DNA of 64,000 bases. It comes from Pseudomonadota bacterium. GTDB lineage: Bacteria; Pseudomonadota; Gammaproteobacteria; Burkholderiales; JBFMAC01. The stretch is from assembly GCA_040756015.1 (NCBI GenBank), contig JBFMAC010000013.1, positions 6,483 to 70,482 of the forward strand, given 5' to 3'. The notes beneath the pieces are model-generated. The model worked only from the letters and a program-made list of their open reading frames with translations. It did no database searches and had not been told where the DNA came from. Position numbers and translations under genes: made by a program. Positions 5,523 to 32,360 of this stretch are shown one piece after another; positions within the stretch are counted from its first letter, which is position 1, and each line of letters opens with the position of its first letter.

Positions 5523-6140
5523 CTAATTGCCTTCCAGCAGCAGCCTGATGTCGTGGGCGAAGGCTTCCGCGCCTTGGCCGTGGCTGGCAAACAGGCGCAA
5601 CCGGCCGGTCGGGTCATACAGAAAAGTGCCGGAGGAATGGTCTATGGTGTACTTGGCTGGATCTGGGTCGGGCTGCTTGTGGTAGATCACCTTGAACTCT
5701 TCTGCGGTCTTCGCCGTCGTCGCAGCATCGCCGTACAACCCTAAAAAACCGGGATTGAAAGCCGGCACGAACTGCGCAAGCAGTTCCGGCGTGTCACGCT
5801 CCGGATCCAGGGTGATGAACAAGACCTGAACCTTGCCGGCATTGTCGCCGAGCTTCTTCAGCGCCTGCGCCAGGTCGCCCAGCGTGGTCGGACAAACATC
5901 GGGGCAGTGGGTATAGCCGAAAAACACCGCCACCACCTTGCCCTTGAAATCACTCAGGGTGCGTGTCTTGCCGTCGTGATCGGTAAGGCGGAAATCGCGC
6001 CCCATCGGCGCGCCGGTAACATTGGTCGCCTTGAACTCCGCCGGCGCCTGTTTGCCGCAGCCCGCCACGACAAACAACGCTGCAATCAGCGCCAACCCCC
6101 ATCCACGCCATTTCCAGGCCATGCACTGCCTTGTTTCCAT
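5523..6140 (-). CDS. SCO family copper chaperone (lipoprotein)
   Basis: FGYTHCPDVCP (CxxxC), distal His in IDHS, lipobox VAGC; start approximate. Confidence 0.92.
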   Translation of the reverse strand: METRQCMAWKWRGWGLALIAALFVVAGCGKQAPAEFKATNVTGAPMGRDFRLTDHDGKTRTLSDFKGKVVAVFFGYTHCPDVCPTTLGDLAQALKKLGDNAGKVQVLFITLDPERDTPELLAQFVPAFNPGFLGLYGDAATTAKTAEEFKVIYHKQPDPDPAKYTIDHSSGTFLYDPTGRLRLFASHGQGAEAFAHDIRLLLEGN

Positions 6141-6157
6141 CTTGCTTCCCCAGTTGC

Positions 6158-6227
6158 CTAAGCCTATCTCAGAATCTACTGTACGTACATGATCCGTGGT
6201 CCGGCGCTGCTCGGAACCCTCATGTAT
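6158..6227. repeat. Truncated inverted copy of the 378-526 element
   Basis: 52/64 identity, counted by hand, to the reverse complement of about 458-521. Confidence 0.8.
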
Positions 6228-6235
6228 CCCCATAC

Positions 6236-6313: not shown

Positions 6314-7213
6314 TCACAGGTAGATGTAATGGTCGATCAGCAGCACGGCAAACAAGGCCGAGAGATAGAAGATCGAATAGCGGAACGTTTTCTTGGCCAG
6401 TTCGTCGCTGTACTGTACGTACAGGCGCACTGCGTAATACAGGAACACCGCATCCAGCACCAACGCACCGATCACGTAGTAGATGCCGTTCATGCCCGCA
6501 CCGTAGGGCATCATGGTGACGCCGATCAACACCACCGTGTAGAGCAGGATGTGCAGGCGGGTGAATTCCGGCCCGTAAAACACCGGCAGCATGGGCAGGC
6601 CGGATTTTTCATATTCCTTGACGCGATACAGCGCCAGCGACCAGAAATGCGGCGGCGTCCAGGCAAAGATGATGAGGAACAGCACCCACGCTTCCGGCGA
6701 CACCGTGTTGGTGACGGCGGCCCAACCCAACACCGGCGGCATCGCGCCGGAGGCACCGCCGATGACGATGTTCATCGGCGTGGCCGGCTTGAGGAACACG
6801 GTGTAGATCACCGCGTAGCCGACGAAGGTGGCGAAGGTCAGCCACATGGTGAGCGGGTTGACATAGGCATAGAGCAGCCACATGCCCACCACGCAGACGA
6901 TGGTGGCGAAGAAGACGGTTTGCGACGAAGTTACCTGCCCCATCGGCAAGGGGCGGCCGCGCGTGCGCGCCATCACCGCGTCGATTTTCTGTTCGATAAG
7001 GCAGTTGAACGCCGCAGCGGCGCCGGACACCAGGGCAATGCCCACCGTGCCGGCCAGGAGGATGTCGAGCGGCACCATGCCGGGTGCCGCGAGGAACATG
7101 CCGATCACTGCGGTAAAGACGATCAGCGAAATCACGCGCGGCTTGCACAGGGCCAGGAACCCCCTGATGGTGACTGCGGCTTGCTGCCAGTTCAGACTGG
7201 ATGCGGTACTCAT
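6314..7213 (-). CDS. cyoE: Heme O synthase (protoheme IX farnesyltransferase)
   Basis: [26 protein letters not shown] and WTPPHFWSL motifs. Confidence 0.97.
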
Positions 7214-7239
7214 CTCTCCCCCTTCGTTTTATCCAGGCG

Positions 7240-7863
7240 TCAGCCTATCCACGAATATTTGAGTAAATGCGTGATGTCCTTCAGGAACCCGCCCATCACC
7301 TTGGCGTCCGGATCGAGCTTCTGGCTCATCATCAGGACACCCATGGGATCGACCAAGTAAATACGGTCACTTTCGAAATTGCCGGGTTGCAGGGTGAACT
7401 GTTCCACCAGTTGCGCCACACTGTCGCGCGGCCCCACCACCACCTGCATTCCCTGATAGTCAGCCAGCTTGCCAGCCAGGTTGCCGACTTCAGCGTCATC
7501 GCGCAGGATCAGCACGCGCTGCAGGCGCGTCGCTTCCTTGTCCTGGGCCATGTGGATCTGGCGCATGGCAAACGCACCTTGCTGGCATTGCTCCGGGCAG
7601 GACGATTCGGCAAAGAAAATCATGGTCCATTTTTTGTGCAGGTCGCTGAACTTGATCTGCTTGCCATCCAGTGTCTGCAGCGGCACATCCGCTATCGGAC
7701 GTACTGGCTGCACCAGATCGGCATGATTACCCGTTGCCGCCGGGCGCCAGCCGCTGAAATAAATCGCAGCCCCCACGACAAACGGGATCGAGGTCACCAG
7801 GGCGATCATCCAGAACGTCCACATCGAATTCGGTTTCTTGGGTTGTGGTGCAACAGCGCTCAC
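7240..7863 (-). CDS. SCO-like/thioredoxin-fold membrane protein of cox clusters
   Basis: N-terminal TM helix, CPEQC, IYLVDPMG; GTG start overlaps the SURF1 stop. Confidence 0.8.
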   Translation of the reverse strand: MSAVAPQPKKPNSMWTFWMIALVTSIPFVVGAAIYFSGWRPAATGNHADLVQPVRPIADVPLQTLDGKQIKFSDLHKKWTMIFFAESSCPEQCQQGAFAMRQIHMAQDKEATRLQRVLILRDDAEVGNLAGKLADYQGMQVVVGPRDSVAQLVEQFTLQPGNFESDRIYLVDPMGVLMMSQKLDPDAKVMGGFLKDITHLLKYSWIG

Positions 7864-8621
7864 GATTGGTGAAACTCCTTGTCTTTTCCAGCACCGGTTT
7901 TCTTCAGGCTCAATGCCACATAAATCACGAACAGCGTGAACGCCATGGCGAACCATTGGATCGAATAACCGATATTCTTTTTCACCTGCGTCGTCGGCTT
8001 GCGCCATTCGCGCACAAAACCGCCGGCGGGGCTGTCGGGATCCAATTGTATCACTATCGGCTGCACAGGGAACGGCACCGCGTCGGAAAATCGCTTCATT
8101 TCGACCGCCTGCCAGATAGTTTCCCAAGCGGCGCCGATCGGGTCCTGCTCCTTCAACAGATAAGTTTTCCTCGGCACCTGTGCGTAGCCAATAACTTCAA
8201 CCGGCCCCGGCGGAGTATCGATCTGCGGCAAGACGCTACGATCCGGCCCCAGTTTGATCCAGCCGCGGTTGACCAGGATGCGCGTTTCGCTGCCCTCGAT
8301 ATGCAACGGGGTAATGACATGGAACCCCGGCTGCGGGCTGATGTCGCCGTAAAGCTGGTTGTCGAGCAGAAATTGATACTGGGTTTCATAGCGGCCACGC
8401 ACGCTGACCTTGCGCCCGTCCACTGCCTGGCCATCGACCGGATCCCCGCTGATCGGGATAGGAGGCTGTTTCCCCCTGAGCTCGAGGAATTCCTCCACAG
8501 CCCGATTTTTTTCAGCACGCTGCCACTGCCACAGGCCCAGCATCACCATGGTGATGCATGCCACCAGCATGCCCAACGTGGCAAGCCACGACGGCTGGAA
8601 ACGATAACCCTTGATCTGCAT
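7860..8621 (-). CDS. SURF1 family oxidase assembly protein
   Basis: LGLWQWQRAEK, ILVNRGW and GYSIQWF motifs. Confidence 0.93.
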   Translation of the reverse strand: MQIKGYRFQPSWLATLGMLVACITMVMLGLWQWQRAEKNRAVEEFLELRGKQPPIPISGDPVDGQAVDGRKVSVRGRYETQYQFLLDNQLYGDISPQPGFHVITPLHIEGSETRILVNRGWIKLGPDRSVLPQIDTPPGPVEVIGYAQVPRKTYLLKEQDPIGAAWETIWQAVEMKRFSDAVPFPVQPIVIQLDPDSPAGGFVREWRKPTTQVKKNIGYSIQWFAMAFTLFVIYVALSLKKTGAGKDKEFHQS

Positions 8622-8642
8622 CTTAGCTTGCCGCCCAAAAAG

Positions 8643-8668
8643 CAAAACGCGGCCTATGCCGCGCTTTG
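8643..8668 (-). terminator. Probable terminator hairpin after coxC
   Basis: Minus strand CAAAGCGCGGC-atag-GCCGCGTTTTG followed by CTTTT. Confidence 0.6.
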
Positions 8669-8690
8669 CCTTGTTTCAATGACAACCGAA

Positions 8691-9539
8691 TTACAGCCAG
8701 TAGAAGTACAGGAACACCATCACGCCCGGCACCACCACCGCGAAGTTCCAATACCAGCTTGCCATCTCGATGCCGCCGTGATGCTTGGCGTCGAAATGAC
8801 CGATCATCATGCGGTACTGGCAGACCAGCAGCATGATCAGCCCAAGGGTGAGGTGGAACAGGTGCAGACCGGTCAGCGCGTAGTAGTTGGTACCGTACGC
8901 GCCGGTGCCGACATGGTGCTCACCGATGAACAGGCCGACCAGTTGCTGGGCCATGAACACCAGGCCGAACACTATCGCCAGGCACAGGCCGGAATTCATC
9001 TGGCCGCGGTTGTCCGCCTTCATGCCCTTGAGGCCCCAGTTCACCGCAATGGCCGACAACACCAGCATGGCGGTACCCACCGCCGGGCCGGTCATATCCA
9101 GCGCCTCCACCGGCCCGCCGGTCGGGCCGTTGCTCGGCCAGCCCCCCACGAAACCTGGCCACATCGATTCGAAGAAGTGGCCCGACAACCAGGGCACCGA
9201 GAACACGCGCATGTAGAACAGCGCACCGAGGAAAGCAGCAATGAACCACAATTCGGCGGCGATGTACCAGCCCATGCCGATGCGGAATGAACGGCTTTCC
9301 CAACCAGTAAACTTGCCGGCATTGTTCTCCCATGCCATGTCGGTGAGCCAGCCAATGGCGCCATAGCTGATCAACACACCGCCGATCAACATCGACAACA
9401 CCATGCCCGTGTAACCATTGGCGGTAAACACCAAACCGGCAGCGAACAAGAACAGGCCAAGGTTGACGGTCACCGGACGCATGCTGGGTTCCGGCACGAA
9501 GTAAGGCTTCCCTGTTTGCAGATTTTGCACTTCTGACAT
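8691..9539 (-). CDS. coxC: Cytochrome c oxidase subunit III (divergent)
   Basis: YFVPEPS, SFRIGMGWYIAAE, TGLHLFH and WYWNF; position in the cox operon. Confidence 0.9.
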   Translation of the reverse strand: MSEVQNLQTGKPYFVPEPSMRPVTVNLGLFLFAAGLVFTANGYTGMVLSMLIGGVLISYGAIGWLTDMAWENNAGKFTGWESRSFRIGMGWYIAAELWFIAAFLGALFYMRVFSVPWLSGHFFESMWPGFVGGWPSNGPTGGPVEALDMTGPAVGTAMLVLSAIAVNWGLKGMKADNRGQMNSGLCLAIVFGLVFMAQQLVGLFIGEHHVGTGAYGTNYYALTGLHLFHLTLGLIMLLVCQYRMMIGHFDAKHHGGIEMASWYWNFAVVVPGVMVFLYFYWL

Positions 9540-9560
9540 GTGAATCTCCCCTAAATAAAA

Positions 9561-10106
9561 CTACGAACCCTTTTTAACTGCTGTAAAGAACGCATACTGC
9601 AAGCTCAAGTTGCGGCTTTCCTTCGGAAACTCCGGACTGACGAAGAAAGTCAGCGAGAAGTTTTTTTCCTCGCCGGGCTTCAACTGCTGCTCTTTGAAGC
9701 AGAAGCAATCCAGTTTCTTAAAATGCACCGCTGCCCATCCCGGCGCCACGCTCGGCACTGCCTGCGCGCGCACATACTCGTTGCTGGTATTCTTGACGTG
9801 ATACTGGGCAACCGTGATTTCGCCGGGATGCACTTTCATGCGATTCTGCACCGGTTTGAACTCAAACGGCAGTCCCGGCATGGGCTGGCTGGTAAACTCC
9901 ACCGTCACCCAGCGGCTCTCGTCCACCTTGAGCTCCTTCACCACGTTATCGCCCACCGCACCACCGGTCTTGCCGTTGATGCCCAGCACGCGGCACATCT
10001 GCGCGTAAAACGGCACCAGTGCATAACCGAATGCCACCGCGCCCACCACCACCACCAGCAGCTTCAGGGCCAGGCGCTTGTTGGCACGCTTGAGCGCGTC
10101 ATCCAT
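9561..10106 (-). CDS. ctaG: Cytochrome c oxidase assembly protein CtaG/Cox11
   Basis: FGYALVPFY..MC...GING and FKKLDCFCF motifs. Confidence 0.95.
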   Translation of the reverse strand: MDDALKRANKRLALKLLVVVVGAVAFGYALVPFYAQMCRVLGINGKTGGAVGDNVVKELKVDESRWVTVEFTSQPMPGLPFEFKPVQNRMKVHPGEITVAQYHVKNTSNEYVRAQAVPSVAPGWAAVHFKKLDCFCFKEQQLKPGEEKNFSLTFFVSPEFPKESRNLSLQYAFFTAVKKGS

Positions 10107-10228
10107 CAACCGCCCCAATCCTTCAGGTAGGCCAGGAAATAAGCCGTCAGTGCCAATGCCGCCAACACCAAAGCCAGCACTACATTCGCCTGCTTCTTTT
10201 TCCGTTCCAGTTCCTGCTGCTCGCTCAT
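10106..10228 (-). CDS. 40-aa single-TM small protein (putative oxidase assembly or accessory subunit)
   Basis: Manual translation MSEQQELERKKKQANVVLALVLAALALTAYFLAYLKDWGG; TGATG coupling to ctaG. Not in the ORF track. Confidence 0.75.
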   Translation of the reverse strand: MSEQQELERKKKQANVVLALVLAALALTAYFLAYLKDWGG

Positions 10229-10247
10229 TTGCATTCTTCCCGTAGTC

Positions 10248-10269
10248 GGCCCGGGGTTGCCCCCGGGCC
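10248..10269 (-). other. Perfect 9-bp intergenic hairpin after coxA (possible mRNA stabiliser)
   Basis: GGCCCGGGG-gcaa-CCCCGGGCC with a GNRA loop on the minus strand; no U tract. Confidence 0.6.
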
Positions 10270-10287
10270 TGCTTACGCTATCCGCTC

Positions 10288-11886
10288 TTATTTGATCACC
10301 GGGGGGTGATCAAAGGTGTGATACGGGGGCGGCGACGGCAGGGTCCATTCCAACCCTTCCGGATTGTGATCGTCCCATACCTTGTCGGACACCTTGCGGC
10401 CTTCACGCACGCACTTGATCACGATGTAGGCGAAGATCAGCTGCGACAAGCCGTAAACATAGGCAAAGGTGCTCGACAGCATGTTGAAGTCCGCGAACTG
10501 CAACGGATAGTCGGCATAGTGACGCGGCATGCCGGCGAAGCCCAGGAAGAACTGCGGGATGAAGGTCATGTTGAAACCGATCGCCGACAGCCAGAAGTGC
10601 ACCTTGGACAGTTTTTCATCGTACATATGGCCGGTGAACTTGGGCAGGTAGTAGTATCCCGCAGCCATGAAGGCGAATATCGCACCACCCAGGAAGGTGT
10701 AGTGGAAATGCGGCACCACCACGTAGGTGTTGTGGTACTGCGCGTTCACCGCTATATCCGGCATGATCAGGCCGGTCACACCGCCCCAGCCGAACTGGAA
10801 CACGAAGGCCAGCGCGAACAGCATCGGCGTCTCGAAGGTCATCGCACCTTTCCACACCTGACCCACCCAGCAGAACGCCAAAACGCCGGTCGGGATCGAG
10901 ATCGACATGGTCGCGTACATGAAGTACAGCTCGGCTTCCAGCGGCATGCCGGAGGTCAGCATGTGGTGCGCCCACACGATATGGCCGAGGATGCCGATGC
11001 CCCAGAAACCGAACACCTGCATTTTGTAGCCATACACCGGCTTGTTGGTGAAGGTTGCCAGGATGTTGGGGATGATACCCCAAGCCGGCAACAGCACGAT
11101 ATACACTTCCGGGTGACCGAAGAACCAGAACACGTGCTGCCACAGCACCGGGTCACCGCCGCCAGCGGCGTTGAAGAAGTTGGTGCCGAAGTGGCGGTCG
11201 GTCAGCAGCATGGTCACCGCAGCGGAAAACACCGGCATCACAATGATCACCAGCACCGAAGTCACCAGCCAGGACCACACGAACAGCGGCATTTTCATCA
11301 GCGTCATGCCGGGTGCGCGCATGTTGAGCACGGTCACGATCACGTTGATCGCGCCGGTCACGGAGGAAATACCCAGCAGGTGCACCACCACGATCAGCAT
11401 GTCGGTACCGATACCGCCCTGCATGCTCAGCGAGATGTTGTGGTTGGTCCAGCCACCGCCGGGGGCGCCGTCACCGATGCCGAACAGGGTCAGGATGAAA
11501 CCGGACACCAGCAGCACTGCCGACAGGGGCAGTATCCAGAAACCCCAGTTGTTCACACGCGGCAACGCCATGTCAGGCGCACCGATCATGAGTGGGATCA
11601 GGTAGTTGTTGAAGCCGGTGGCCACCGGCATCGCTGCCGCGAACACCATCACCAGCGCATGCACCGTCACCAACTGGTTGAACAGCGCCGGGTTGAGGAA
11701 CTGCAAGCCGGGCTGGAACAGCTCCGCCCGGAAAGTCAGCGCCATCGCGCCGCCGACGAAGAAGAAGATCAGGGCCGCGCTCATGTAGAGCGTACCCAGA
11801 TCCTTGTGGTTGGTGGTGCTCAACCAGCGCTTGATGCCGGTCGGATGATCATGGTGGTGATCATCATGTATCGAAATTGCGCTCAT
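10288..11886 (-). CDS. coxA: Heme-copper oxidase subunit I, A1-type but lacking K-channel residues
   Basis: TTNHKD, TVHA, PDMALPR, WFFGHPEVY, VWAHHM and HFHY motifs. Confidence 0.95.
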   Translation of the reverse strand: MSAISIHDDHHHDHPTGIKRWLSTTNHKDLGTLYMSAALIFFFVGGAMALTFRAELFQPGLQFLNPALFNQLVTVHALVMVFAAAMPVATGFNNYLIPLMIGAPDMALPRVNNWGFWILPLSAVLLVSGFILTLFGIGDGAPGGGWTNHNISLSMQGGIGTDMLIVVVHLLGISSVTGAINVIVTVLNMRAPGMTLMKMPLFVWSWLVTSVLVIIVMPVFSAAVTMLLTDRHFGTNFFNAAGGGDPVLWQHVFWFFGHPEVYIVLLPAWGIIPNILATFTNKPVYGYKMQVFGFWGIGILGHIVWAHHMLTSGMPLEAELYFMYATMSISIPTGVLAFCWVGQVWKGAMTFETPMLFALAFVFQFGWGGVTGLIMPDIAVNAQYHNTYVVVPHFHYTFLGGAIFAFMAAGYYYLPKFTGHMYDEKLSKVHFWLSAIGFNMTFIPQFFLGFAGMPRHYADYPLQFADFNMLSSTFAYVYGLSQLIFAYIVIKCVREGRKVSDKVWDDHNPEGLEWTLPSPPPYHTFDHPPVIK

Positions 11887-11924
11887 TGTTTTCTCCTTTG
11901 GTTCCGCTAAACTTGGCTAGGCAA

Positions 11925-12785
11925 TCACATCGCTGCCGGGGCGGCTGCGGCCGGAGCGACCGGAGCCATCTTGGCCTTCTGCGCCGCGACCCATTCCTTG
12001 TACTTCTCTTCGCTCACCGCCTCCACCACGATGGGCATGAAGCTGTGGCCCTTGCCGCACAGTTGCGCGCAACGGCCGCGATAGGTGCCGGGCCTGTCGA
12101 TCTTGACCCAGGTTTCATGCAGGAAGCCGGGGATGGAATCGCGCTTGACGGCGAACTCGGGTACCCACCAGGCGTGGATCACGTCGGTAGCGGTGGTCAG
12201 GATGCGCACCTTCTTGCCCACCGGCAGCACCAGCGGATTGTCCACTTCCGCCAGATAGTGCTCACCCTTGGGCTGCTCGTTGGAAACTTGCTCCCACGGC
12301 GTGGCCATCGAGCTCACGAAGCTGATACCCTCATCCGGGTATTCGTATTGCCAACGCCACTGCGTGCCAATCACCTTGATCACCATGTCCACATCGGTGC
12401 GGGTGTCTTCCATTTCCTTCGCGGCCGAGTACGCCGGAATGCCGATGACCACATAATCAAGCAGGAACAGGATCACGAACGGGACGGATGCCCAGACGAT
12501 CTGGGAGCGGGTACGCGGACCGTCGTTGGTGATGGGGACCGCACCCTTGCTCTTGCGATGGTTGAGGATCGAGTAGATCACCACCAGCGAGGTACTAATA
12601 AACATGAACAGGACTACATACATCACCTCGTGGTGCAGGTGCAGCGTTTGCTCCGCCAAGGCCGTAGCCGGAGTCGGGAAATCATATTTCGCTTCCCCGG
12701 CTGCATGCGCCAGAAGCGGCAGCATGGCCAACAGCGCCAGCCCTCCCCGCAACGTCTTCAGCAGTTGTTTGAATTTGTCTCGCAT
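11925..12785 (-). CDS. coxB: Cytochrome c oxidase subunit II (CuA)
   Basis: QWRWQYEY, DVIHAW and CAQLCGKGHSFM; no C-terminal cytochrome c domain. Confidence 0.95.
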   Translation of the reverse strand: MRDKFKQLLKTLRGGLALLAMLPLLAHAAGEAKYDFPTPATALAEQTLHLHHEVMYVVLFMFISTSLVVIYSILNHRKSKGAVPITNDGPRTRSQIVWASVPFVILFLLDYVVIGIPAYSAAKEMEDTRTDVDMVIKVIGTQWRWQYEYPDEGISFVSSMATPWEQVSNEQPKGEHYLAEVDNPLVLPVGKKVRILTTATDVIHAWWVPEFAVKRDSIPGFLHETWVKIDRPGTYRGRCAQLCGKGHSFMPIVVEAVSEEKYKEWVAAQKAKMAPVAPAAAAPAAM

Positions 12786-12821
12786 GACATCTCCCCCTGA
12801 GTAAAAAAAACCAACCAAAAG

Positions 12822-13289
12822 CTATTCTGCCAGATGCCGCCCGAGTTGCTTGGCCAGAGCCAGCCGCTCGTCATACCTCACCATCCGGCCCAATTCGATC
12901 TCGCGGCCGTGGGAACGCAACAACAAGCGCATCCCGAACTCCCCTTCCTCGAGCACCACACGCACCCAGGCGCGCTGGAATTCGGCCTTGCACATCTTCC
13001 GTCCATCTTTTTGTTCGACGGAAACGCGATCTCCGCTTATCTCTATCCGCTCGTAATCCCCGACATGGCTGGTGATGTGGTAGAACACCACCGCCACCAC
13101 CACGATCTCCAGTCCGGAGAACGGCAAAATCAGCCACGTGCCGACGACCCACATGAAAACGATCGCCACCGTGGCAAAAAGCAAAAACATGCCCACAAAC
13201 AGCATGCGCAGACCAAGGGGGGACAATGAATTGTTACGCCGCGTTACCAGCGTGTAGTCCGAGCCCGTAATGGATTCGGTATACGGCAT
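12822..13289 (-). CDS. DUF2244 family membrane protein
   Basis: RRNNSLSP, WLILPFSGLE, DYERI and GREIELG; usual position upstream of coxB. Confidence 0.85.
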   Translation of the reverse strand: MPYTESITGSDYTLVTRRNNSLSPLGLRMLFVGMFLLFATVAIVFMWVVGTWLILPFSGLEIVVVAVVFYHITSHVGDYERIEISGDRVSVEQKDGRKMCKAEFQRAWVRVVLEEGEFGMRLLLRSHGREIELGRMVRYDERLALAKQLGRHLAE

Positions 13290-13448
13290 CCCCCAGCCTT
13301 TTTGCCGCCCACCCACAGGTGAGCCATTTTGACGCAGCCGGAAAACTAACATAGTCCGCGCGGGCTTTGCAAGCGAAATCTCGCCACCCAAGAAACCATT
13401 TTAAAAACCATTTCATGATCATGGGGATGGGGTGGCGCGGCGCGCCTT

Positions 13449-18680: not shown

Positions 18681-19777
18681 TGTAGTTGCTTCAGACGCTG
18701 TTCGACGAAAACGCGCAAATCGTCATGCAACGAATTCGACACGAGGGCGCGTTGATAGGCCAGGCGTGCCTCCGCATCGCGCTTTTCCGCCTGCAACGAA
18801 ATCCCCAGCCCCATCCACCACTTGCCGACCTGCGGCTGTAAACGCAACGCCGCCGCATACTGTTCCACTGCCTCGGCATGACGTTGCTCGCGCTGCAGCA
18901 GCGCGGCGAAAAACGCCAGGTAATCCGGATTGGCGGAGGCATACGGCAATACCGCGCGCAACGTCGTCATCGCACCTGTCGCATCGCCTCGTTCCAGTTC
19001 GATACGTGCCAGCGTCATTGCATAGCCGTTATGCACCGGATCGATTTTCAACCCCTCGCGCAGCACAGCCTCGGCCGCTTCGGCGCGCTTGGTTTCCAGC
19101 AGCAGGCCAGCATAGGCGAGACGCGCCGATTCGTGGGCGCTGTTGAGCTTGAGCGCGACGACAAAGCCAGCCTCGGCCTCGCTCATGCGCCCCTGCTGCA
19201 TCAGCGCGAATGCCTTGTCGAATTCGTTGTCCGCCTGCTGCAAGGAATTCATCTGCTTTACCAGCTTGCCGTCGGCAGGGATGCTGAAAGAAGGCACCGC
19301 CAGCGGGTGTGCCGGGATCACGGCAGGCGCGCGCGCGACTTCTGTCGCATCGTCCGGCGGCTGCATCTCGGGTTTGGCAGCGGTCGGTGACTCTGCCTGC
19401 CGGGGCGGCAAGGGGAGCGCCGCAGAGGATGACGCCGACGGCGGCGTGCCCAATTCCAGGCTGAGGCGCGAAGCCGGCGGCAACAGGCTGGCCTCGACCT
19501 GCGGCGACGTTGCGGCGACCTCGGGCAGCGCCGGGGATACCGGTAGCGCCGCCGGCTGTGTCCGTATGACGGGTACGGCAGCTTGCCGAATGTCCGTCAT
19601 GCCACTCCACCACGGCACGATTGCAATCAAGCCGACCAGCATCCCCGCCCACAGCAGAGGCCGGCGCGACGGGCGCGGCGCCGGCACCACGCACACCTGC
19701 GCGCGCAGATCGCCTACCGCCTCATCGGCAGCACCGCGTAGCTCCAGGCTTTGCAGCATGTGATTGATCGCGCTCAC
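18677..19777 (-). CDS. mshN: MSHA biogenesis TPR protein MshN
   Basis: Start (V)SAINHMLQSLE, TM helix, Pro-rich linker and TPRs with WWMGLGISL; GTGA overlap with mshM. Confidence 0.85.
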   Translation of the reverse strand: MSAINHMLQSLELRGAADEAVGDLRAQVCVVPAPRPSRRPLLWAGMLVGLIAIVPWWSGMTDIRQAAVPVIRTQPAALPVSPALPEVAATSPQVEASLLPPASRLSLELGTPPSASSSAALPLPPRQAESPTAAKPEMQPPDDATEVARAPAVIPAHPLAVPSFSIPADGKLVKQMNSLQQADNEFDKAFALMQQGRMSEAEAGFVVALKLNSAHESARLAYAGLLLETKRAEAAEAVLREGLKIDPVHNGYAMTLARIELERGDATGAMTTLRAVLPYASANPDYLAFFAALLQREQRHAEAVEQYAAALRLQPQVGKWWMGLGISLQAEKRDAEARLAYQRALVSNSLHDDLRVFVEQRLKQLH

Positions 19778-20739
19778 AGCAGTACCCAGCTCACGCAGCC
19801 CACCGACACCACTGCCGCACCCCACCCTAGCCAGCGCCAGAACCGGGTGCGCGGCTTCGCCGCCGGCGTGTCCGCCGCCGCCAGCGCCACGTGGCGCGAG
19901 GTTGCTTCCTGCTTGCCTTCGCCGTAAGCCAGCATCAGCGCCTTGTGCGCGACGATGTTGACCAGCCGCGGGATGCCACCCGTCACGCGGTACATCATTG
20001 CCACCGCCGCCTTGTCGAACACCCTGCCGTCGAGGTGGCCAGCAACTTTCAGACGATGCCCCAGATAATCCGGCAGATCCTCTTTCGCCAAACCGCGCAG
20101 GTGGTACTGGAAAGTGATGCGCTGCTTGAGTTGCCGCACCGGCTGGTCGTTGAGCTTGTGTTCCAACTCCGGCTGACCGAACAGGATCACCTGCATCAGC
20201 TTGCGCTTCTCGGTTTCCAGGTTGGTGAGCAGGCGCAATGCTTCCAGGCTTTCCATCGGCATCGCCTGCGCCTCGTCCAGGCACACCACGACACGCTTGT
20301 CCTGGCGCGCGAAACCGAGCAGGGCTCGCGTCAGCGCCTTGGTCACATGATGCAGGTCGGCGTCCTTGTCGACCGTCACGCCCAGCTCTTCCGCCAATGC
20401 CGCGAGCAGGCTGCGCGGTTCCAGGTAGGGATTGGGCACGTAGGCGGTGATGAAACGCTTGCCGCGCAGATCGGCATAAACCAGCCCGTCCTCTTCCGCG
20501 GCAGTGCCGGCGCCGACCTGCGGGGCACCGCCGCTGTTCAGGCTGGACAGGAATTTTCTGCACAGCAGGGTCTTGCCGGTGCCCACCTCGCCGGTGATCT
20601 TGAGGAAACCTTCGCCGTTGTTCACCGCGATCAGCAAGATGTTGAGCGCCTCCTGGTACGCCGAACAGGCGAAGAAAAAGCTGGTATCAGGGGTCAGGCC
20701 GAAGGGCGGCTCGCGTAATCCGAAATGCGCTCGATACAT
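19774..20739 (-). CDS. mshM: MshM / ExeA-like AAA ATPase
   Basis: HFGLREPPFGLTPD, GEVGTGKT, DEAQ and GQPEL motifs. Confidence 0.92.
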   Translation of the reverse strand: MYRAHFGLREPPFGLTPDTSFFFACSAYQEALNILLIAVNNGEGFLKITGEVGTGKTLLCRKFLSSLNSGGAPQVGAGTAAEEDGLVYADLRGKRFITAYVPNPYLEPRSLLAALAEELGVTVDKDADLHHVTKALTRALLGFARQDKRVVVCLDEAQAMPMESLEALRLLTNLETEKRKLMQVILFGQPELEHKLNDQPVRQLKQRITFQYHLRGLAKEDLPDYLGHRLKVAGHLDGRVFDKAAVAMMYRVTGGIPRLVNIVAHKALMLAYGEGKQEATSRHVALAAADTPAAKPRTRFWRWLGWGAAVVSVGCVSWVLL

Positions 20740-20758
20740 AATGCCTCCTCGCAGGATG

Positions 20759-22480
20759 CTATGGCTTGCCGCCGCGTTCCATGCGCTGCAGGCGGTCGCG
20801 TGTTTCCAGGATGTTTTCCGCCCAGTCGCGGTCGCCTTGGATCACGGTGGGCTTGAGCAGGATCACCAGTTCGCGTTTCTCCCCGACCTCCGAGGTCTGC
20901 CCGAACAGCGCACCGACGCCGGGCATCGAACCTACCCCCGGCACCTGCGAACGGCTGTTGGTTTGCGACTGCCGCATCAAGCCGCCGATGGCGACGATCT
21001 GGCCGTTTTGCGCGCGCACGATGCTGTCGGTTTCGCTGACATCGCTGGAAGCCAGCGGCAGCGTGTATTTGCCGGCCGCCCCCAGGTCGATGTTCTTGCT
21101 CTTTTCCGCCACCACGCTCACTGAAGGATGCACATGCAGGATGATATTGTTGTTTTCGTCGATGCGCGGCATCACGTCCAGCGCGATGCCGGAGAAGAAC
21201 GGTTGCAGGGTCAACGTCGGAGTGCTGGTGGTGGCCGTGCCAGTGGTGGTGGTGGTAGAGACGTTGGTGATGAAGAATTCGTCGGTGCCGACTTTCAGCA
21301 CCGCCTTCTGGTTGTTGAGGGTGGCAATGCGCGGGCTCGACAACACGTGCACCGTGCCCTGGCTTTCCAGGAAGGAAATCAGCGCAGCGAAGCTGCTGGT
21401 CTGGAACGCTAGCCCGAACAGCCCGCCCGTCGCCGTAGCGAGACTGCTGATGTCGGTGCCCGGGGTGACGCCGGCGGTACCGAACGGCGAGGCAGTCAGT
21501 GCCGCGCCGCCCATCGGCACGGTGGTCACGTCGCCCGGTTGCAGCGTCGCGCCCTGCCCGAGCAGCCCGGCCGAAACCCGGCTGCCGGGGCCGGTCTTGA
21601 ACGCTGCCCAGTTGATGCCGGCCTGATAACCGTCGCTCAGGCGCACTTCGATGATCTTCGCTTCCAGCATGACCTGGCGCTCGACCGCGATCTGCGAGGC
21701 TTTCAGGTAAGTTGCCACGTTGCGCAGTTCATCGGGCATGGCGCGCACCACCACCATGCCGGAATGCGGATTCACCACTACGCTGCGCCCGTTGCTGGAA
21801 CCAACGATGGCGTTGAGCGCGCGCGACAGCTCCTCCCAGAAATCGGTGCTGGAAGTGGTGGTGATGTGGCTGCTCTCGAAGCTGCGCGTCGCAGCGGAGG
21901 TAATGGGCTGCGTCGTGGTGCTGGCAGTACCGGAAGTGCTCGCCGATGCATTGTCGCTCACCGAGCTCGAGGTCACACGTATGCCTGAAGTACCCTTACG
22001 CTCGCCGCTCAGGTAGTTCACCTGGAACAGATGGGTCTGTATGGTGAGTGGCTGGATGTAGATGCGCGTGCCGTCGAGGCGGTAATCGTAGCCGTACAGG
22101 TCGCGTATCGCTTCCAGCGATTCCAGCACGGTGACATCCTTGAGGTTGACGGAAATGTTGCCGCTCACCTCGGGGTGCACCAGCATGCTGTAGCGCGTGC
22201 CGGCGACGATGCCCATGAACACCTGCGCCGCCGGCGCACCGTTCACCACCAGGTCGAATTTCGGTTCCAGCGCCTTGGCGCCGGCGTCCGGCATCTCCAC
22301 CTTGAGCGGCGGCAGCAGCGCCTGGCTCACCGCGTCGGGCTGGGCCGGCACGACACGTTCCTGGGCGGCCCGATCCAGCTCGCCGGCGATCTGCTCGGCG
22401 GTGGCATTGCGCTTGGCGCCGCTCGCCGCGCACCCCGACATCGCAACTACCAACATCCCCAGCAATATTTTGTTCATCAT
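20759..22480 (-). CDS. mshL: MSHA secretin MshL
   Basis: Lipobox MSGC, QVMLEAKIIEV, LSSPRIATLNNQKA and ELVILLKP. Confidence 0.95.
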   Translation of the reverse strand: MMNKILLGMLVVAMSGCAASGAKRNATAEQIAGELDRAAQERVVPAQPDAVSQALLPPLKVEMPDAGAKALEPKFDLVVNGAPAAQVFMGIVAGTRYSMLVHPEVSGNISVNLKDVTVLESLEAIRDLYGYDYRLDGTRIYIQPLTIQTHLFQVNYLSGERKGTSGIRVTSSSVSDNASASTSGTASTTTQPITSAATRSFESSHITTTSSTDFWEELSRALNAIVGSSNGRSVVVNPHSGMVVVRAMPDELRNVATYLKASQIAVERQVMLEAKIIEVRLSDGYQAGINWAAFKTGPGSRVSAGLLGQGATLQPGDVTTVPMGGAALTASPFGTAGVTPGTDISSLATATGGLFGLAFQTSSFAALISFLESQGTVHVLSSPRIATLNNQKAVLKVGTDEFFITNVSTTTTTGTATTSTPTLTLQPFFSGIALDVMPRIDENNNIILHVHPSVSVVAEKSKNIDLGAAGKYTLPLASSDVSETDSIVRAQNGQIVAIGGLMRQSQTNSRSQVPGVGSMPGVGALFGQTSEVGEKRELVILLKPTVIQGDRDWAENILETRDRLQRMERGGKP

Positions 22481-22848
22481 GGTTTGCTTTCCGTTTTCCC
22501 GGGCAAGGCGGGCAGCGCATCCTGCCGCTCGCGCTTGTCCACAAATGGGAACAGCCTCAACACCTGCACGCTCCCCCCGTCCTTCAGGACAACCTCGCTT
22601 TCGCTGACCCTGATGAGCCGTGCCCCGCCATAAATATCCCCCTGCTCCACCGTCTGTCCGTTGATGATCGCCGCGCGCCGCTGCGGGGAAATCATCACCG
22701 ACTGCAACTGCGGCGCCGAAGAAACCACTGCGCCCTTGCCCCGGTACAACGCCGCCGGCGGACGCGTGGGATCGCGCAGCTCGCCTGCCTGCGCCGCGCT
22801 CATGCCCAGCGCCAGCATACCCGCCAGCCCGATCAGACCGTGAGCCAT
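22477..22848 (-). CDS. mshK: MSHA biogenesis protein MshK
   Basis: LRDPTRPP, LQSV and AIING motifs. Confidence 0.88.
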   Translation of the reverse strand: MAHGLIGLAGMLALGMSAAQAGELRDPTRPPAALYRGKGAVVSSAPQLQSVMISPQRRAAIINGQTVEQGDIYGGARLIRVSESEVVLKDGGSVQVLRLFPFVDKRERQDALPALPGKTESKP

Positions 22849-23516
22849 GTCTTGTCCATGCTCAAGGTATACAGCGTCAACGTCAGCGTCGCCGCCGGGT
22901 AAGTTTCCACGCTCAGGCTGGCCCTGCCCCAGTACATATGTTCCGGCAGCCTTTCCAGTTCCACCAGGTAATTCATCAGATCGAGATAACCGCCGCGCAC
23001 GGTAAGCTCGACGCCGTGCTTGTAAACCAGTTGTCCCGGCACGCCCTCTGCGGCCTTCTCATCTTTGGCATCCTTCACGTCTTCGAGCAAACTGGAAACC
23101 GGCAGGGTCTTGAGCGCCAGCAGTTGCAGGCGTCGATTATGCTGCAACATGCGCTCCAGCAAATCGGCTATCTTTTCCGGCGGCACCAGCCCATCCTGCT
23201 TGCCTTGCAAGAACGTCTCCGCTTCGGACAGTTGCCGCCTGATTTGCGCCAGCCTGGCGCGGTTGGCGGAATTGGGATCCTCGCCCCTGGCCTGCACCAG
23301 CGATTCGATCTGCACGCGGATCGCCTTCATCCGCTCCTGCTGCTGCACCACCTGCTCGGACAATTGCTTCTGGCGTGCCAGCAGCGGATCGAGGAATAGC
23401 GTATTGATCAGTGTCACCACAATCAGCGCCGCGGCTGCGAATACCATGGCGCGCTCGCGCAGCGTCATCTCGTCGATGCGTTCGGCCAGCCGCTTGATTT
23501 TTTCCAGTGCCTTCAT
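22833..23516 (-). CDS. mshJ: MSHA biogenesis protein MshJ (PilO-like)
   Basis: LRER, TM helix, LVPP, YKHGVELTVRGGY and YTLS motifs. Confidence 0.88.
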   Translation of the reverse strand: MKALEKIKRLAERIDEMTLRERAMVFAAAALIVVTLINTLFLDPLLARQKQLSEQVVQQQERMKAIRVQIESLVQARGEDPNSANRARLAQIRRQLSEAETFLQGKQDGLVPPEKIADLLERMLQHNRRLQLLALKTLPVSSLLEDVKDAKDEKAAEGVPGQLVYKHGVELTVRGGYLDLMNYLVELERLPEHMYWGRASLSVETYPAATLTLTLYTLSMDKTWLTV

Positions 23517-24139
23517 CGCACCGCCCCTGTGGCCGCACCTGCCGAACGCAGGCTGAATTCCAGGTAAGGCATGACGTTTTTATCGGCAGCCTGCGCCACC
23601 TGGATGTGCAGGGCGGCAAACTGCTTGCCACGCAGCAACTTCTCGCGCTTGAGGCGCTGCAAATAGGCCGGTACCAGTTCCGCCTCCAGCGCGCGTCCGT
23701 TCAACGACAGCTCACTGCCGTCACCGACGATATCGAAGCCGGTCAGCCACAGGCCGTCCAGCGCCTGCCGCGCAAAGGCGCGCATGTATTCCGCATAGCC
23801 TTCGGTGTTGCCGATGGCGCCGCTCTTCAGCGTCTGCACCGCCGCCTCGCGGAAACGCAGGCGCGCTTCCATCTGCCTCACTTCATCCTCCAGCATCTGG
23901 CTTTTCTGGAGCGGGCCGTACTGGCTGGTGAATTTGGCAAACCGCTCCTGCTCCGCGGCCAGGCGCTTCCTGCCTTCCGCCTCTTGGTCACGCAATGACG
24001 CCACCTGGTATGCCGCATAGAAATAAAACAGCACCGCTCCCGTCACGATCAGGCCCAGTCCCTGCAACATGGTCAACGCGGAAAACACTTTTTTTTGCTT
24101 GAGGAAAACCGGGTTGAACAGGTTGATCTGCTGGCTCAC
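23513..24139 (-). CDS. PilN-like MSHA biogenesis protein (MshI C-terminal part)
   Basis: QQINL, TM helix, GLWLTGF and VPAYLQRL motifs. Confidence 0.82.
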   Translation of the reverse strand: MSQQINLFNPVFLKQKKVFSALTMLQGLGLIVTGAVLFYFYAAYQVASLRDQEAEGRKRLAAEQERFAKFTSQYGPLQKSQMLEDEVRQMEARLRFREAAVQTLKSGAIGNTEGYAEYMRAFARQALDGLWLTGFDIVGDGSELSLNGRALEAELVPAYLQRLKREKLLRGKQFAALHIQVAQAADKNVMPYLEFSLRSAGAATGAVR

Positions 24140-25080
24140 AGCGCCTTCCCTTCCTGGCGCAGCGCGGCACCCAGCACATAGAACGCCTGCACCTGCTGCT
24201 CCGCCTCGGCCAGTTGCGGCACCGCGGAAAAATCCAGCGCTGCGCCGAGATCAAGCATCTCCACCGGCATATACAAATTGTCCGCCAGATAATCGCGCAG
24301 CGCGATGCCTGCCGGCAGCGGCGCAATCACCAGATTGCCCAGTGCCAGGTAATGATACTGATGGTCGAAATGATCAAGCGAGCGCTGTACTTCCAGCGTC
24401 ACCCTCTCGAAAAACTGCCGTTGCAATTCCTCGTCCGCATCGCGCAACTGCTTGAAGCCGATTTCCAGATGGCGCGCCAGGTAAAGCTCGCCGCCGCTGG
24501 TGAAAGTCAGCAGCCCACCCTCCTCGTCGAACGACAGCAACGCCAGCGCGCGCCCTTCCTGCTCGACGCAGGCGGCGATGTTGCGCTGCGCCATCTCCGG
24601 GATATCGATCACCGCGAGGGGAATTTTTGCCTCCTCGAACAGCGCTTCGCGCTTTTGCAGGATTTCGTTGCGCGCTACCACTGCGTACATCGAGTGCTGG
24701 CGCGAGGGCGCATTTTTATCTGCCGGGATATCGAGCACGTCCATGGTAGCGTCGTCCACGTGATAGTCGAGCATGTCGTTCACGCGCCAGCGGATCGCAC
24801 TTTTCAATTCGGCCGGCGGCACGTTGGGCGCTTCCACCAGCAGCATCTGATACTCGCCAGGATTAAGCAGGGTAGTGCAGTTGAACCGCTCCAGATGCCT
24901 GTCTTTCCTGAGTTTGCGCCAGGCATCGACATCGTCCGGCACAATGCGGTGATATTCGTAGCGCAGCACCTGCGGCCGTGCCGCACCGATGCGCTGCACA
25001 TGCGCCAACCCCATGCCATCCTCAAACACGCCGATGGCAAGCCAACCCGGTTCCTGCTTGGTACGCCGAAAAAGCAACAT
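24136..25080 (-). CDS. mshI: MSHA biogenesis protein MshI (PilM-like)
   Basis: YQMLLVEAPNVP, AIRWRV, IDIPEMAQRN and LEVQRSLD motifs. Confidence 0.88.
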   Translation of the reverse strand: MLLFRRTKQEPGWLAIGVFEDGMGLAHVQRIGAARPQVLRYEYHRIVPDDVDAWRKLRKDRHLERFNCTTLLNPGEYQMLLVEAPNVPPAELKSAIRWRVNDMLDYHVDDATMDVLDIPADKNAPSRQHSMYAVVARNEILQKREALFEEAKIPLAVIDIPEMAQRNIAACVEQEGRALALLSFDEEGGLLTFTSGGELYLARHLEIGFKQLRDADEELQRQFFERVTLEVQRSLDHFDHQYHYLALGNLVIAPLPAGIALRDYLADNLYMPVEMLDLGAALDFSAVPQLAEAEQQVQAFYVLGAALRQEGKAL

Positions 25081-25110
25081 GGTTACCACACTATCGGGAT
25101 AATTGACTTG

Positions 25111-25139
25111 AACTTAAATCAACAACGCATTGTTGTCAA
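25111..25139 (-). promoter_or_regulatory. Sigma70-type promoter for mshI-N with an overlapping palindrome
   Basis: Minus strand TTGACA-N17-TAAGTT; palindrome CAACAA-cgca-TTGTTG at 25120-25135. Confidence 0.6.
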
Positions 25140-25210
25140 TGATTTTTATTCCAGAAAACCACCTAAAATTGCGGCTGGCGGGCCGTTTTTTCCTCCCGTT
25201 GCCTAAAAAA

Positions 25211-25493
25211 GGGGCTCTCACGGTAATTTTCTGGCGTGGCAGCCAAGCCACAGGGACCGCGCCAAACGGTAATCGAACGCCGCAAGACCCGCCATGCGGG
25301 TTGGCCTACATCGGAGCGGGATTAAGCGTCGCCCTGAAGGGTGCGGACGTGCCGCAGGCACGGAGGCATCCCTGAATGGGGTACTGCTGCGAAACGGTGA
25401 CGACTTGAAATGCAGGGTTGGACAGCGCTTGCGCCGGACAAGCCAAATGAAAGGCTTAATTCCGCTCCGCTGGAATGCGCGGGCGCAGTCCAA
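25211..25493 (+). ncRNA. Candidate multi-stem structured RNA, family not recognised
   Basis: 16-bp long-range stem (25312-25327 with 25454-25469) plus at least five hairpins; imperfect pairs read as G-U only on the plus strand. Confidence 0.5.
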
Positions 25494-25521
25494 CAAGAAT
25501 TTCTGGAGCAACGAGGCTGCC

Positions 25522-28500: not shown

Positions 28501-29349
28501 GCCATCAATGTTGTAGTAGGTCGCCGGATTGAAAGGCACTGCCGTCCCATTGAAAGTGACGGTGTTACCCGTCGCACTCGCATTGAACGTACCGTTCCAG
28601 CCTTGCGTTGGTTGCGACAGTGTCAGGCTGGAATTTGCCCCTTGCGTCCACGTCGTATTGGTGTCGCCATTGCCGTCGAGGTATTGCAGCGTGACAGTCC
28701 CATTGTTGGTGACCGCGCCGCCCTGCTGGATCTCAACAAAGGAATTAGGCGCGTTGATCACCCCGTTGATTACCACGCTTGAAGCATTATTGTTATCGAG
28801 CCGGATGATACGGTTGCCATTGGTTTGCGCAGTGCCCGTAACCGTTCCGTCTATCGTCAGCGTAGCGGCGGCGTTGTTACCTACCCGTATCTCACTCTTG
28901 AGTGTCAGATTCAGGTTCGAGCCAGCCGGTATCGTCACGTTGGCATCGACCTGGATGCGGCCTATGTCCTTGACAGTGCCCGTGCCAGACAGCGTACTGC
29001 CATTCCCGGTCATGATGAGCTTGCCATCGTTGCCAGTACCATCGTAGGTGCCATTGATCACCACATTGCCGGAAACGGTCAAATTGTTGCCCCCGTCCAC
29101 CAGCGTGCCCCCCGCATCGATGGTAAGCGAAGCGGCGCTGCGATCGCCATTCAGGTTGACCGTGTACGGATTTTTGATGACGACAGTATCGCCTGCTCCT
29201 GGCGTTTTATTGCAACTCCATGTGGCATTGTTGTTCCAGTTGCCGCTTGCGATGCTGGTACATGTCGCCGCAACAGCCCTGCTGCAAAGCAGCAGCAACG
29301 CAAAAAAAACCGGCCAGCAATATTGCCTTTTCATGTTGCCCTCGATCAT
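25522..29349 (-). CDS. mshQ: MshQ-like large pilus tip adhesin (DUF6701-type C-terminus)
   Basis: Signal peptide, beta-rich body, and C-terminal YDDVG, TPNF, VGRFYP, RYGRL, ATFG and IYLRE motifs. Confidence 0.85.
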   Translation of the reverse strand: MIEGNMKRQYCWPVFFALLLLCSRAVAATCTSIASGNWNNNATWSCNKTPGAGDTVVIKNPYTVNLNGDRSAASLTIDAGGTLVDGGNNLTVSGNVVINGTYDGTGNDGKLIMTGNGSTLSGTGTVKDIGRIQVDANVTIPAGSNLNLTLKSEIRVGNNAAATLTIDGTVTGTAQTNGNRIIRLDNNNASSVVINGVINAPNSFVEIQQGGAVTNNGTVTLQYLDGNGDTNTTWTQGANSSLTLSQPTQGWNGTFNASATGNTVTFNGTAVPFNPATYYNIDGTGVTCPHPAGITVLGTSPCGGGGGGGGGGCNSLLPPMPAGGNVVASGSTTTIGAGTNVNGTAVTGTGNSILSPGSTTTWSAAGAALPAPPSPIPTSTVRTTVGAGGLAAGSYGDVRVTTGTGVFTGGSYFMNELYVAPGATAQLAPGDYYVNKLTVGSSITKTGGTLTLSGNGLVRIFVKTNAKGDAALYGGSSGIWDGSLINVGGNPGNLQILLYETTTYFEIGNNAQLTGFVIQPVYGGTAGAKAIDVHDNAIITGGLYTAGLLNIKNNVTFNYTPAVASAISTMSTCSGPHHFEIQHADGQGMTCAATTLTIRACADAACTTPYTTGASGTLSATGTPTVNWDGTTGGASGAGFVIASGSSSVTKNMQVAAAGSVVLDVASATPAPSGATTCNFGNPACKFTANLAGFIFSDTPTGGSYGIPSQVSGVAASGLYLRAVQASTTNPAVCTPAIIGQTAAVNMGYTCDDPATCSAGSLAIINTIAVAPTGTPVSLAFDANGAAPISARYDDVGQIRLTASTTVTPFGGATPVTLNGNSSAYVVRPHHFDLSAIKCTTADAANCGAGALAMPTPGDNPAAADAAGPSFIAAGTPFSVTVTARNALNGATPNFGKEVVPEGVALTPTLVAPAGGNNPALGGSFGAFSNGVATGTNFTWGEAGIVTLAPGIADGSYLGAGNTTGTASANVGRFYPHHFTLSGASIANRADLICTPASIFTYAGEKFRAAFTLTAQNAVNATTANYNGAFAKFDGAVPANYGFGAIDLAAPTPSLNLDIAGASSSGNWAAGVGTLNADLGLTRAAAPDGPYESFNLGMDPVDADGVKLASYDLDVNNDTVADHGLVGASKIRYGRLKLSHAHGSEVLDLPIGIQAQYWNGTVFVTNTDDNCTTLAPANITLGNYQGGITATNMGTGHVSFAGPFAVGIGNLKLTRPSPAPTGKGSVDVTVDLVTEGKTYLQGAWTGTSYNENPSARATFGVFKNPNEFIYLREDF

Positions 29350-30616: not shown

Positions 30617-30632
30617 GGCTTCGTCACCTTCA

Positions 30633-31641: not shown

Positions 31642-31720
31642 GGTCAGATTGGAAAGGAAGAAGGGCAGCAACGCTGCCCCACATTCCTTGTCTGGACAAT
31701 TACACGCTCGTTGACGACGA

Positions 31721-32351: not shown

Positions 32352-32360
32352 ATTCTTGAC

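Follow-up and report, generated by a model that had tools for sequence, protein, structure and literature searches.

The 64-kb window analysed here, a stretch of contig JBFMAC010000013.1 from a Burkholderiales genome assembly (GCA_040756015.1), carries a nine-gene cox operon for an aa3-type cytochrome c oxidase whose subunits I (CoxA) and II (CoxB) lack the lysine and further residues of the K pathway for protons. We propose that this operon probably encodes a complete and functional oxidase of the A1 type, belonging to a monophyletic lineage in which the K pathway has been dismantled in both subunits, and that O2 is reduced with all protons arriving through the D pathway. Positions given below are those of the window, all nine operon genes lie on its minus strand, and K-less designates CoxA proteins with Leu or Met in place of the K-pathway Lys.

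Residue states in CoxA and CoxB

Residues were mapped by a phmmer alignment of CoxA to Rhodobacter sphaeroides 1m56_A (E 2.2e-149, with an offset of 26 at K362 and S299), and by an alignment of CoxB to Paracoccus 1ar1_B (E 1.2e-55). Residue numbers and roles are those that we take to hold in the model enzymes (K362, S299, E101(II), etc.). Within the K-channel set, K362 is replaced by Leu (L336; codon 336, TTG, 10879-10881), where PTGVL is aligned with PTGIK of 1m56_A, and S299 by Pro (P273; codon 273, CCC, 11068-11070), where GIIPN is aligned with GIVSH. In CoxB, the Gln of 'trsQivw' (Q106(II); codon 106, CAG, 12501-12503) is aligned with the Glu of 'ntpiEviw' in 1ar1_B, which corresponds to E101(II). 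T359 (T333, 10888-10890) is the sole member of the set that is kept. A first-pass annotation of the same DNA had read these positions as PTGVL, GIIP and QIVW; its residues and coordinates are right to the codon, and both alignments bear out the correspondence to R. sphaeroides K362, S299 and E101(II) that it had drawn.

The same annotation had described the His ligands, HPEVY and the D-channel residues of CoxA as retained, and all the residues concerned were present in the codon check. The six His ligands of heme a, heme a3 and CuB (H76, H258, H307, H308, H393, and H395) are intact and invariant in the alignment of relatives. The HPEVY motif provides E260, the A1-defining Glu of helix VI (E286), and the cross-linking Tyr Y262 (Y288), while the D channel keeps D105, N94 and N112 (D132, N121 and N139, respectively). 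In CoxB, the transmembrane hairpin and the CuA ligands (His, Cys-x3-Cys, His, Met) are intact, and HAWWVP and CAQLCGKGHSFMP match the Paracoccus motifs. The AlphaFold2 model of CoxA, which confirms the fold only, has a predicted local distance difference test score (pLDDT) of 76.1 and a predicted template modelling (TM) score of 0.83, and shows a TM score of 0.89 to 1m56_A with 44% identity in the structural alignment.

Three further changes had escaped the first-pass annotation. In CoxA, YHDTY of 1m56_A becomes YHNTY (D412N; N386, 10729-10731) and GMPRRY becomes GMPRHY (R482H, 10519-10521), whereas CSELCG becomes CAQLCG in CoxB (E254Q; Q252, 12063-12065). If the ligands of the Mg/Mn site are, as we assume, H411 and D412 of subunit I and E254 of subunit II, only the first is kept (as H385), the two others being replaced by amides. 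The source enzyme therefore has its six His, HPEVY, D-channel residues, CuA site and fold in common with the canonical A1 aa3 oxidases of R. sphaeroides (1m56) and Paracoccus denitrificans (1ar1), but differs from them at K362, S299 and E101(II), at the two amidated Mg-site positions, and at R482.

A K-less clade and co-variation between two subunits

The nearest database relative of the source CoxA shares 67-68% identity with it, and 55 of the 120 best database matches lack the Lys. In a second search, made with a profile of 40 K-less sequences, Leu or Met occupied position 362 in 106 of the 182 aligned cluster representatives. All 106 rows retain E286, Y288, D132, N121, and N139; they invariably carry Asp at 403 and never at 412, 105 of them have Cys at 365, and position 299 is Pro in 97 and Ser in nine. 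The source CoxA, which reads T-L-C..P-D-H-N, shows this same A1 pattern of K362L/M, Asp at 403, a residue other than Asp at 412, and Cys at 365.

In an unrooted FastTree phylogeny of 137 rows, a single clade with a Shimodaira-Hasegawa-like support of 100 unites 59 K-less rows, and the source CoxA lies inside it within a subclade of nine rows, also supported at 100. All nine members of this subclade carry an additional Asn beside N121 (GFNNY). The clade adjoins the canonical beta- and gammaproteobacterial aa3 oxidases, at about 60% identity, and its named members are metagenome-assembled genomes (MAGs) labelled Methylophilaceae, Sulfuricella, Chromatiales, Candidatus Aalborgicola, and 'beta proteobacterium'. 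The K-less lineage resides mainly in Betaproteobacteria-type genomes. A back-translated pattern running from HPEVY to the Pro matched 16 of 401 genomes drawn evenly from the order, representing seven families, and the reversed-pattern control matched none; one of the two matches in genome G388 (contig C98) is not coxA-like. No other genome of the source's own family was among those sampled.

The homologues with PTGV[LM] that had been suggested for a co-variation check were examined together with their CoxB partners. A CoxA frame was obtained from 79 of the 80 loci, and the CoxB count omits L015, L026, L036, L057, L069, and L070, which gave no CoxB frame. Position 101 of CoxB is Gln in six of the eight K-less rows (Glu and Thr in one each), as against Glu in 94 of the 96 canonical rows, the other two being alignment gaps. 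Fixed throughout the clade and co-varying between two subunits, the K-pathway changes are beyond chance.

Two Gammaproteobacteria MAGs (L036 and L061) harbour a second kind of K-less CoxA, with K362M, T359V/I and S299G, and with D412 kept; it is L061 that has the Thr at CoxB position 101. In the unrooted tree, these two CoxA proteins share a long branch of their own (0.32), which separates them from the 59-row clade on one side and from the 76 canonical rows on the other, and they may represent an independent second origin of K loss. On the canonical side, the protein P0024 (655 aa, longer than its relatives) keeps K362 together with S299P and D412A.

Selection versus decay

Out of 112 near-invariant columns of the 137-row alignment, the source CoxA breaks one (R281N). 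Comparison of the coxC-ctaG-coxA-coxB region with a second strain, represented by contigs from public runs X1-X5, revealed 20 differences, of which 19 are third-position synonymous and the remaining one is A153S in coxC; the seven located in coxA and coxB are all synonymous. The binomial p value is 1.3e-8 against the synonymous fraction of 0.33 expected for transitions, and no strain difference is listed at the three key K-pathway codons in the contigs covering them. Since the tables of X2-X4 are identical and probably derive from one data set, the polymorphism test is effectively one strain comparison, to which X5 is added. DNA nearly identical to window positions 8691-12818 occurs in runs labelled biofilm (a possible source), hot springs, soil, and 'organism A', from five studies.

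That relaxed selection has left the operon as a decaying remnant is hardly credible. The terminal branch of the source CoxA is long (0.31, compared with a median of 0.041) and its TIGR02891 score is under the cut-off, as decay would have it; however, a long branch also fits a lineage that is the sole member of its family among the sampled genomes, and the frames of all nine operon genes are open, in addition to the single broken column and the synonymous nature of the strain differences. These observations, with the fixation in the clade and the co-variation of CoxA K362 with CoxB E101, support purifying selection on the cox operon and K-pathway changes that were selected rather than decayed, which is what the first-pass annotation had concluded from three changes in one pathway.

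Host genome and respiratory context

The source genome comprises 2.35 Mb in 27 contigs and is 99.99% complete. Its single PF00115 match is the coxA of the operon, which leaves no heme-copper enzyme of the nitric oxide reductase (NOR) type. The ccoN model matched coxA only, at 30 bits, and thus found no ccoN; likewise, the CcoN proteins of two relatives (TIGR00780 scores of 750 and 739 bits; queries drawn from L136-L138 only) retrieved coxA alone, and weakly, when searched by tblastn against this genome. Cytochrome bd was not found in it either, with a control that worked. The K-less aa3 therefore seems to be the only respiratory oxidase of the source organism, which also possesses a bc1-type cytochrome b and two RuBisCO large subunits.

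Hosts of canonical aa3 commonly also carry cbb3. Following the suggestion that the hosts be checked for other oxidases, all 18 other K-less hosts were found to have at least two heme-copper genes, and 17 of them a match of the CcoN kind at 391-418 bits; in most of the 18, no second A-type match appeared. The K-less enzyme thus fills the usual aa3 slot beside cbb3 in most hosts, whereas in the source genome it stands alone, where an O2-reducing, energy-conserving role is the only economical reading, subject to assembly gaps. In G018 and G040, a second heme-copper gene in the CcoN range (G018:C3:112055-113347, 413 bits; G040:C2:92788-94083, 406 bits) shares its contig and strand with the K-less coxA and lies only about 8 kb downstream of it. 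A link of the K-less state to autotrophy was considered and dropped, RuBisCO being present in seven of the 18 other K-less hosts compared with 31 of 61 genomes in a one-per-family sample of the order that includes the source genome, G018, and G040.

In other respects, the source genome has one [NiFe]-hydrogenase-like frame, no dsrA above the cut-off and no soxB. Its four PF00384 matches resemble NasA, NuoG, PhsA/Soe-like, and QrcB/ActB-like proteins, with no NarG- or NapA-grade match among them. The QrcB/ActB-like protein of the molybdopterin family (G000:C2:151653-154016, L117) has a twin-arginine-like N-terminus, and suggests an alternative complex III beside bc1. NirS was not found in the source genome, by a search whose control was positive in only one of 14 genomes. 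Two NirK-like multicopper frames are located at G000:C1:216762-219818, and their scores of 179 and 96 bits are below the TIGR02376 cut-off of 296.

This context bears on whether the enzyme has changed its job, acting instead as a peroxidase, as an NO reductase or as a scavenger of O2 outside respiration, which we regard as highly improbable. The K362M mutation is reported to spare peroxidase-type chemistry, and the presence of the NirK-like genes in a genome where no NOR was found could be taken to point the same way. The source enzyme keeps, however, the cross-linking Tyr, the three CuB His, CuA and the whole CtaG/SCO/SURF1 assembly set, it is the only oxidase found in a bc1-bearing autotroph genome, and its counterparts occupy the aa3 slot in the other hosts. 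According to the accessible part of PMC11214002, the NOR families of the heme-copper superfamily (cNOR, qNOR, eNOR, and others) have no cross-linking Tyr and possess an FeB site with a Glu ligand, a definition from which the source CoxA departs by the Tyr of its HPEVY motif. Of the interpretation given in the first-pass annotation, selection rather than decay holds, but a switch of substrate to H2O2 or NO finds no support.

Relation to known systems

The functionally new oxidase subtype that had been envisaged is not supported either, since the same residue state recurs in the cluster representatives and in the genomes of the order enumerated above, and is already in print. In the accessible part of a preprint on Ferrigenium straubiae, COX subunits I and II (COX, cytochrome c oxidase) are described as lacking the K channel, the meaning of which its authors call unclear (bioRxiv 10.64898/2026.01.22.701106). 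This betaproteobacterial lithoautotroph resembles the source organism in the state of its COX, but the preprint also credits it with cbb3 and eNOR, whereas no other heme-copper enzyme was found in the source genome. The F. straubiae COX would belong to the same clade as the source enzyme, to which it is likened by description only.

Another K-less group was reported by Degli Esposti et al. (bioRxiv 10.1101/2020.03.01.968255), as far as the accessible text of that preprint goes. In the COX of acidophilic Fe(II) oxidisers and Thioclava, a hydrophobic residue takes the place of K354 (Paracoccus numbering) and E78 of COX2 is also replaced, with the D channel essentially kept, and the authors suggest that the K channel is non-functional. 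The same group counted seven K-channel losses among archaeal family-A enzymes in 2021, in the accessible part of PMC8239418. The acidophile-type enzymes are described as deep-branching and of the A2 type, whereas the source clade is A1 and stands beside canonical aa3; the A1 Glu (E286) of the source CoxA argues against its membership in that group, the two being set apart here by their descriptions. The K-less A1 clade may be among the groups of Supplementary Figs S9-S11 of bioRxiv 10.1101/2020.03.01.968255.

With regard to oxidases having a single channel, the accessible text of PMC11214002 presents the B- and C-family enzymes (ba3 and cbb3) as heme-copper O2 reductases in which one channel serves all protons. 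These keep a K-analogue and are devoid of the D channel, so that the source enzyme, with D kept and K lost, is their mirror image; similarity of the source CoxA to ba3 amounts to E 1e-5 only. The source enzyme thus adds a divergent member to a K-less aa3 variant that is already known though unstudied, and is not a new oxidase type. The present analysis contributes the size of the clade and its recovery as one well-supported group, the co-variation between two subunits, the purifying selection in the source's lineage, the accompanying changes on the periplasmic (P) side, and a genome in which a K-less enzyme is the only oxidase found.

Possible routes of proton supply in the K-less enzyme

With regard to mechanism, use of the D channel alone is the most likely. 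The dismantling common to the clade consists in Leu or Met at 362, mostly Pro at 299, Cys in place of N/S365, and mostly Gln at CoxB E101; catalytic centre, CuA and the whole D pathway are retained, and O2 would still be reduced to water. Every proton would then enter via the D pathway and E286, even the two chemical protons for which the reductive half-cycle normally draws on the K pathway. We favour this supply because Leu, Pro, Cys, and Gln now occupy the K pathway at its middle and its entrance, with no conserved replacement, and the D pathway is untouched. No conserved Lys or acid that could act as a substitute appears in helices VI-IX of the K-less clade alignment, and two polar candidates of the source CoxA, H302 and Q343 (helices VII and VIII, respectively), were discarded, being unique to it and absent even from its own nine-row subclade.

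The absence of these residues from the subclade also speaks against a K-type pathway rebuilt in about the same place, and Lys-free as in B-family oxidases, which we consider unlikely but not negligible. In such a pathway, water and the upper-path residues T352, S356, T359 (in the source's subclade) and Y288 would join a new entrance on the N side, formed by F311Y and M316Q. Both are polar residues gained specifically in this clade, in the loop that follows helix VI on the N side, and are present in 53 and 57 of the 59 rows, respectively; furthermore, T359 is retained in all nine rows of the source's subclade, and B-family enzymes use a Lys-free K-analogue, as stated in the accessible part of PMC11214002. 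The mid-path is, however, hydrophobic at 362, 299, and 365, the entry Glu of subunit II is lost, and T359 is replaced by Leu, Val or Ile in the bulk of the clade. Kept in an early-branching subclade and replaced elsewhere, T359 rather fits progressive loss, through drift of a disused path.

Other changes travel with K loss on the P side, where T392G is found in 59 of the 59 rows and H472 is replaced by Phe, Trp or Met, in addition to the invariable combination of Asp at 403 with a residue other than Asp at 412. In the source's subclade, these are joined by R482H and CoxB E254Q, and the GWT..H loop is altered and longer by one residue. They could mean that the reductive-phase chemical protons are taken from the P side in a cNOR-like manner, through the remodelled Mg-site and exit region, in what would be a less electrogenic oxidase; we deem this quite unlikely. 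The association is a correlation, and the link is weak since K-bearing relatives also show Mg-site variants (25 canonical loci have H411Q, and a few have D412N/G or E254Q), while an intact D pathway with E286 is a simpler source. The 25 K-bearing beta- and gammaproteobacterial CoxA proteins with H411Q indicate that the aa3 Mg site is more variable here than the model enzymes suggest, and the same variants weaken the case for treating a changed Mg site as peculiar to the clade.

Several points weigh against supply by the D pathway alone. In R. sphaeroides, K362M nearly abolishes turnover (PDB 3om3, titled as this mutant, is among the structure matches), so that a D-only route would need compensating changes. 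The pLDDT of the model is below 50 in the remodelled P-side loops 143-155 and 376-385. The oxidase inventory of the source genome consists of heme-copper and bd searches, the control of the alternative oxidase search having been silent, and a second oxidase could lie in a gap between the 27 contigs. In full-text literature, outside which subscription journals and supplements fall, only sequence-level remarks on the K-less clade and no biochemical study of a K-less A1 enzyme were found. Finally, the accessible part of the F. straubiae preprint gives the K-less cox operon as the least expressed of the three heme-copper enzymes under all conditions tested (bioRxiv 10.64898/2026.01.22.701106).

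Beyond the residue states, their fixation and co-variation in the clade, the purifying selection and the lack of another oxidase in the assembly, all of which are observed here, we infer O2 reduction, proton pumping and the D-only route. More tentatively, and as a serious possibility, we can propose that a natural D-channel-only oxidase of the A family pumps protons and by itself sustains aerobic chemolithoautotrophic life without a K pathway, which would be dispensable given a co-evolved set of 403D with 412N/H, 365C, 299P, and E101(II)Q.

Operon anatomy and other features of the window

The profile matches give the gene order DUF2244-coxB-coxA-ctaG-coxC-SURF1-PA0111-like-cyoE/ctaB-SCO1 (Table 1). 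The unbroken operon with CtaG, SURF1, CyoE, and two SCO-type genes seen in the first-pass annotation is confirmed, the SCO-type genes being SCO1 and the one for a PA0111-like thioredoxin-fold protein. Starts require some attention: that of coxB is likely the ATG at 12785, and that of the DUF2244 open reading frame (ORF) is probably internal. In the PA0111-like ORF, the match is confined to residues 106-295, which places the start internally and makes the overlap with SURF1 an artefact of ORF calling.

Table 1. Genes of the cox operon, with the profile matches and alignments that identify them

Gene or product	Position	Strand	Evidence
DUF2244 integral membrane protein (P0009), directly upstream of coxB	12822..13391	-	PF10003 125.7 bits, residues 51-187
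coxB, subunit II with CuA site	11925..12818	-	TIGR02866 167.3 bits (cut-off 147.7); PF00116; PF02790; 1ar1_B alignment
coxA, subunit I, A1 type, 532 aa (P0001)	10288..11886	-	PF00115 474.2 bits (cut-off 34.8); NCBIfam equivalog TIGR02891 631.9 bits (below cut-off 670.75); 1m56_A alignment; AlphaFold2 model
ctaG/cox11, CuB insertion factor	9561..10118	-	NF003465 203.8 bits (cut-off 162); PF04442
coxC, subunit III	8691..9539	-	PF00510 96.3 bits
SURF1-family assembly factor	7860..8645	-	PF02104 132.5 bits
PA0111-like thioredoxin-fold (SCO-like) protein	within 7240..8127	-	NF058629 42.9 bits (below cut-off 230); weak PF02630 and PF00578
cyoE/ctaB, heme O synthase	6314..7213	-	TIGR01473 316.2 bits (cut-off 210.3)
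SCO1/SenC copper chaperone	5523..6233	-	PF02630 157.6 bits

The architecture is like that of canonical loci, with the coxB-coxA-ctaG-coxC-surf1-cyoE set as in 73 canonical gamma- and betaproteobacterial loci. A special accessory gene tied to the K-less state was looked for and rejected, the rates of DUF2244, CtaG, CoxC, SURF1, PA0111-like, CyoE, and SCO genes being similar in six K-less and the 73 canonical loci; a DUF2244 homologue, for instance, lies upstream of coxA in two of the former and 19 of the latter. The heme A synthase gene of the source genome is on a separate contig from the operon. The latter is flanked by ordinary core genes, with biotin-synthesis-type genes on one side (BATS/radical-SAM, aminotransferase, methyltransferase, and AAA_26 protein) and a sigma-70-family factor, FtsX, an ABC ATPase and an SRP54-type GTPase on the other, and GC content is even over the region.

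Elsewhere in the window, an MSHA/type-IV-pilus-like cluster occupies 19774-36470 on the minus strand, with an MshL-type secretin, a T2SS-F protein and a PilB/MshE-type ATPase carrying a cyclic di-GMP-binding N-terminus. It also includes a DUF6701 protein of 1275 aa (25522-29349) with an unusually low contrast between GC contents at third and second codon positions. On the plus strand, the interval 52640-58404 contains two large genes without NCBIfam matches. The product of one has 897 aa and a weak M1-peptidase domain, and that of the other is a TgpA-type transglutaminase-like membrane protein of 976 aa.

Implications

At the level of annotation, K-less proteins score below the cut-off of the NCBIfam CtaD equivalog. 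With regard to mechanism, how the D and K pathways share the work has been debated for about thirty years, almost wholly on the strength of site-directed mutants that are crippled once the Lys is lost. The clade described here is a natural case of an A1 aa3, orthodox in other respects, from which the whole K pathway is gone; purifying selection has kept this enzyme, and it has reached many lineages. If our proposal is true, the 'essential' K pathway of aa3 would be dispensable given a small set of co-evolved changes, and the clade would offer a natural system, already at hand, in which the roles of the two channels could be told apart. Its enzymes could show whether the D pathway serves all eight protons, and which second-site changes allow it to do so.

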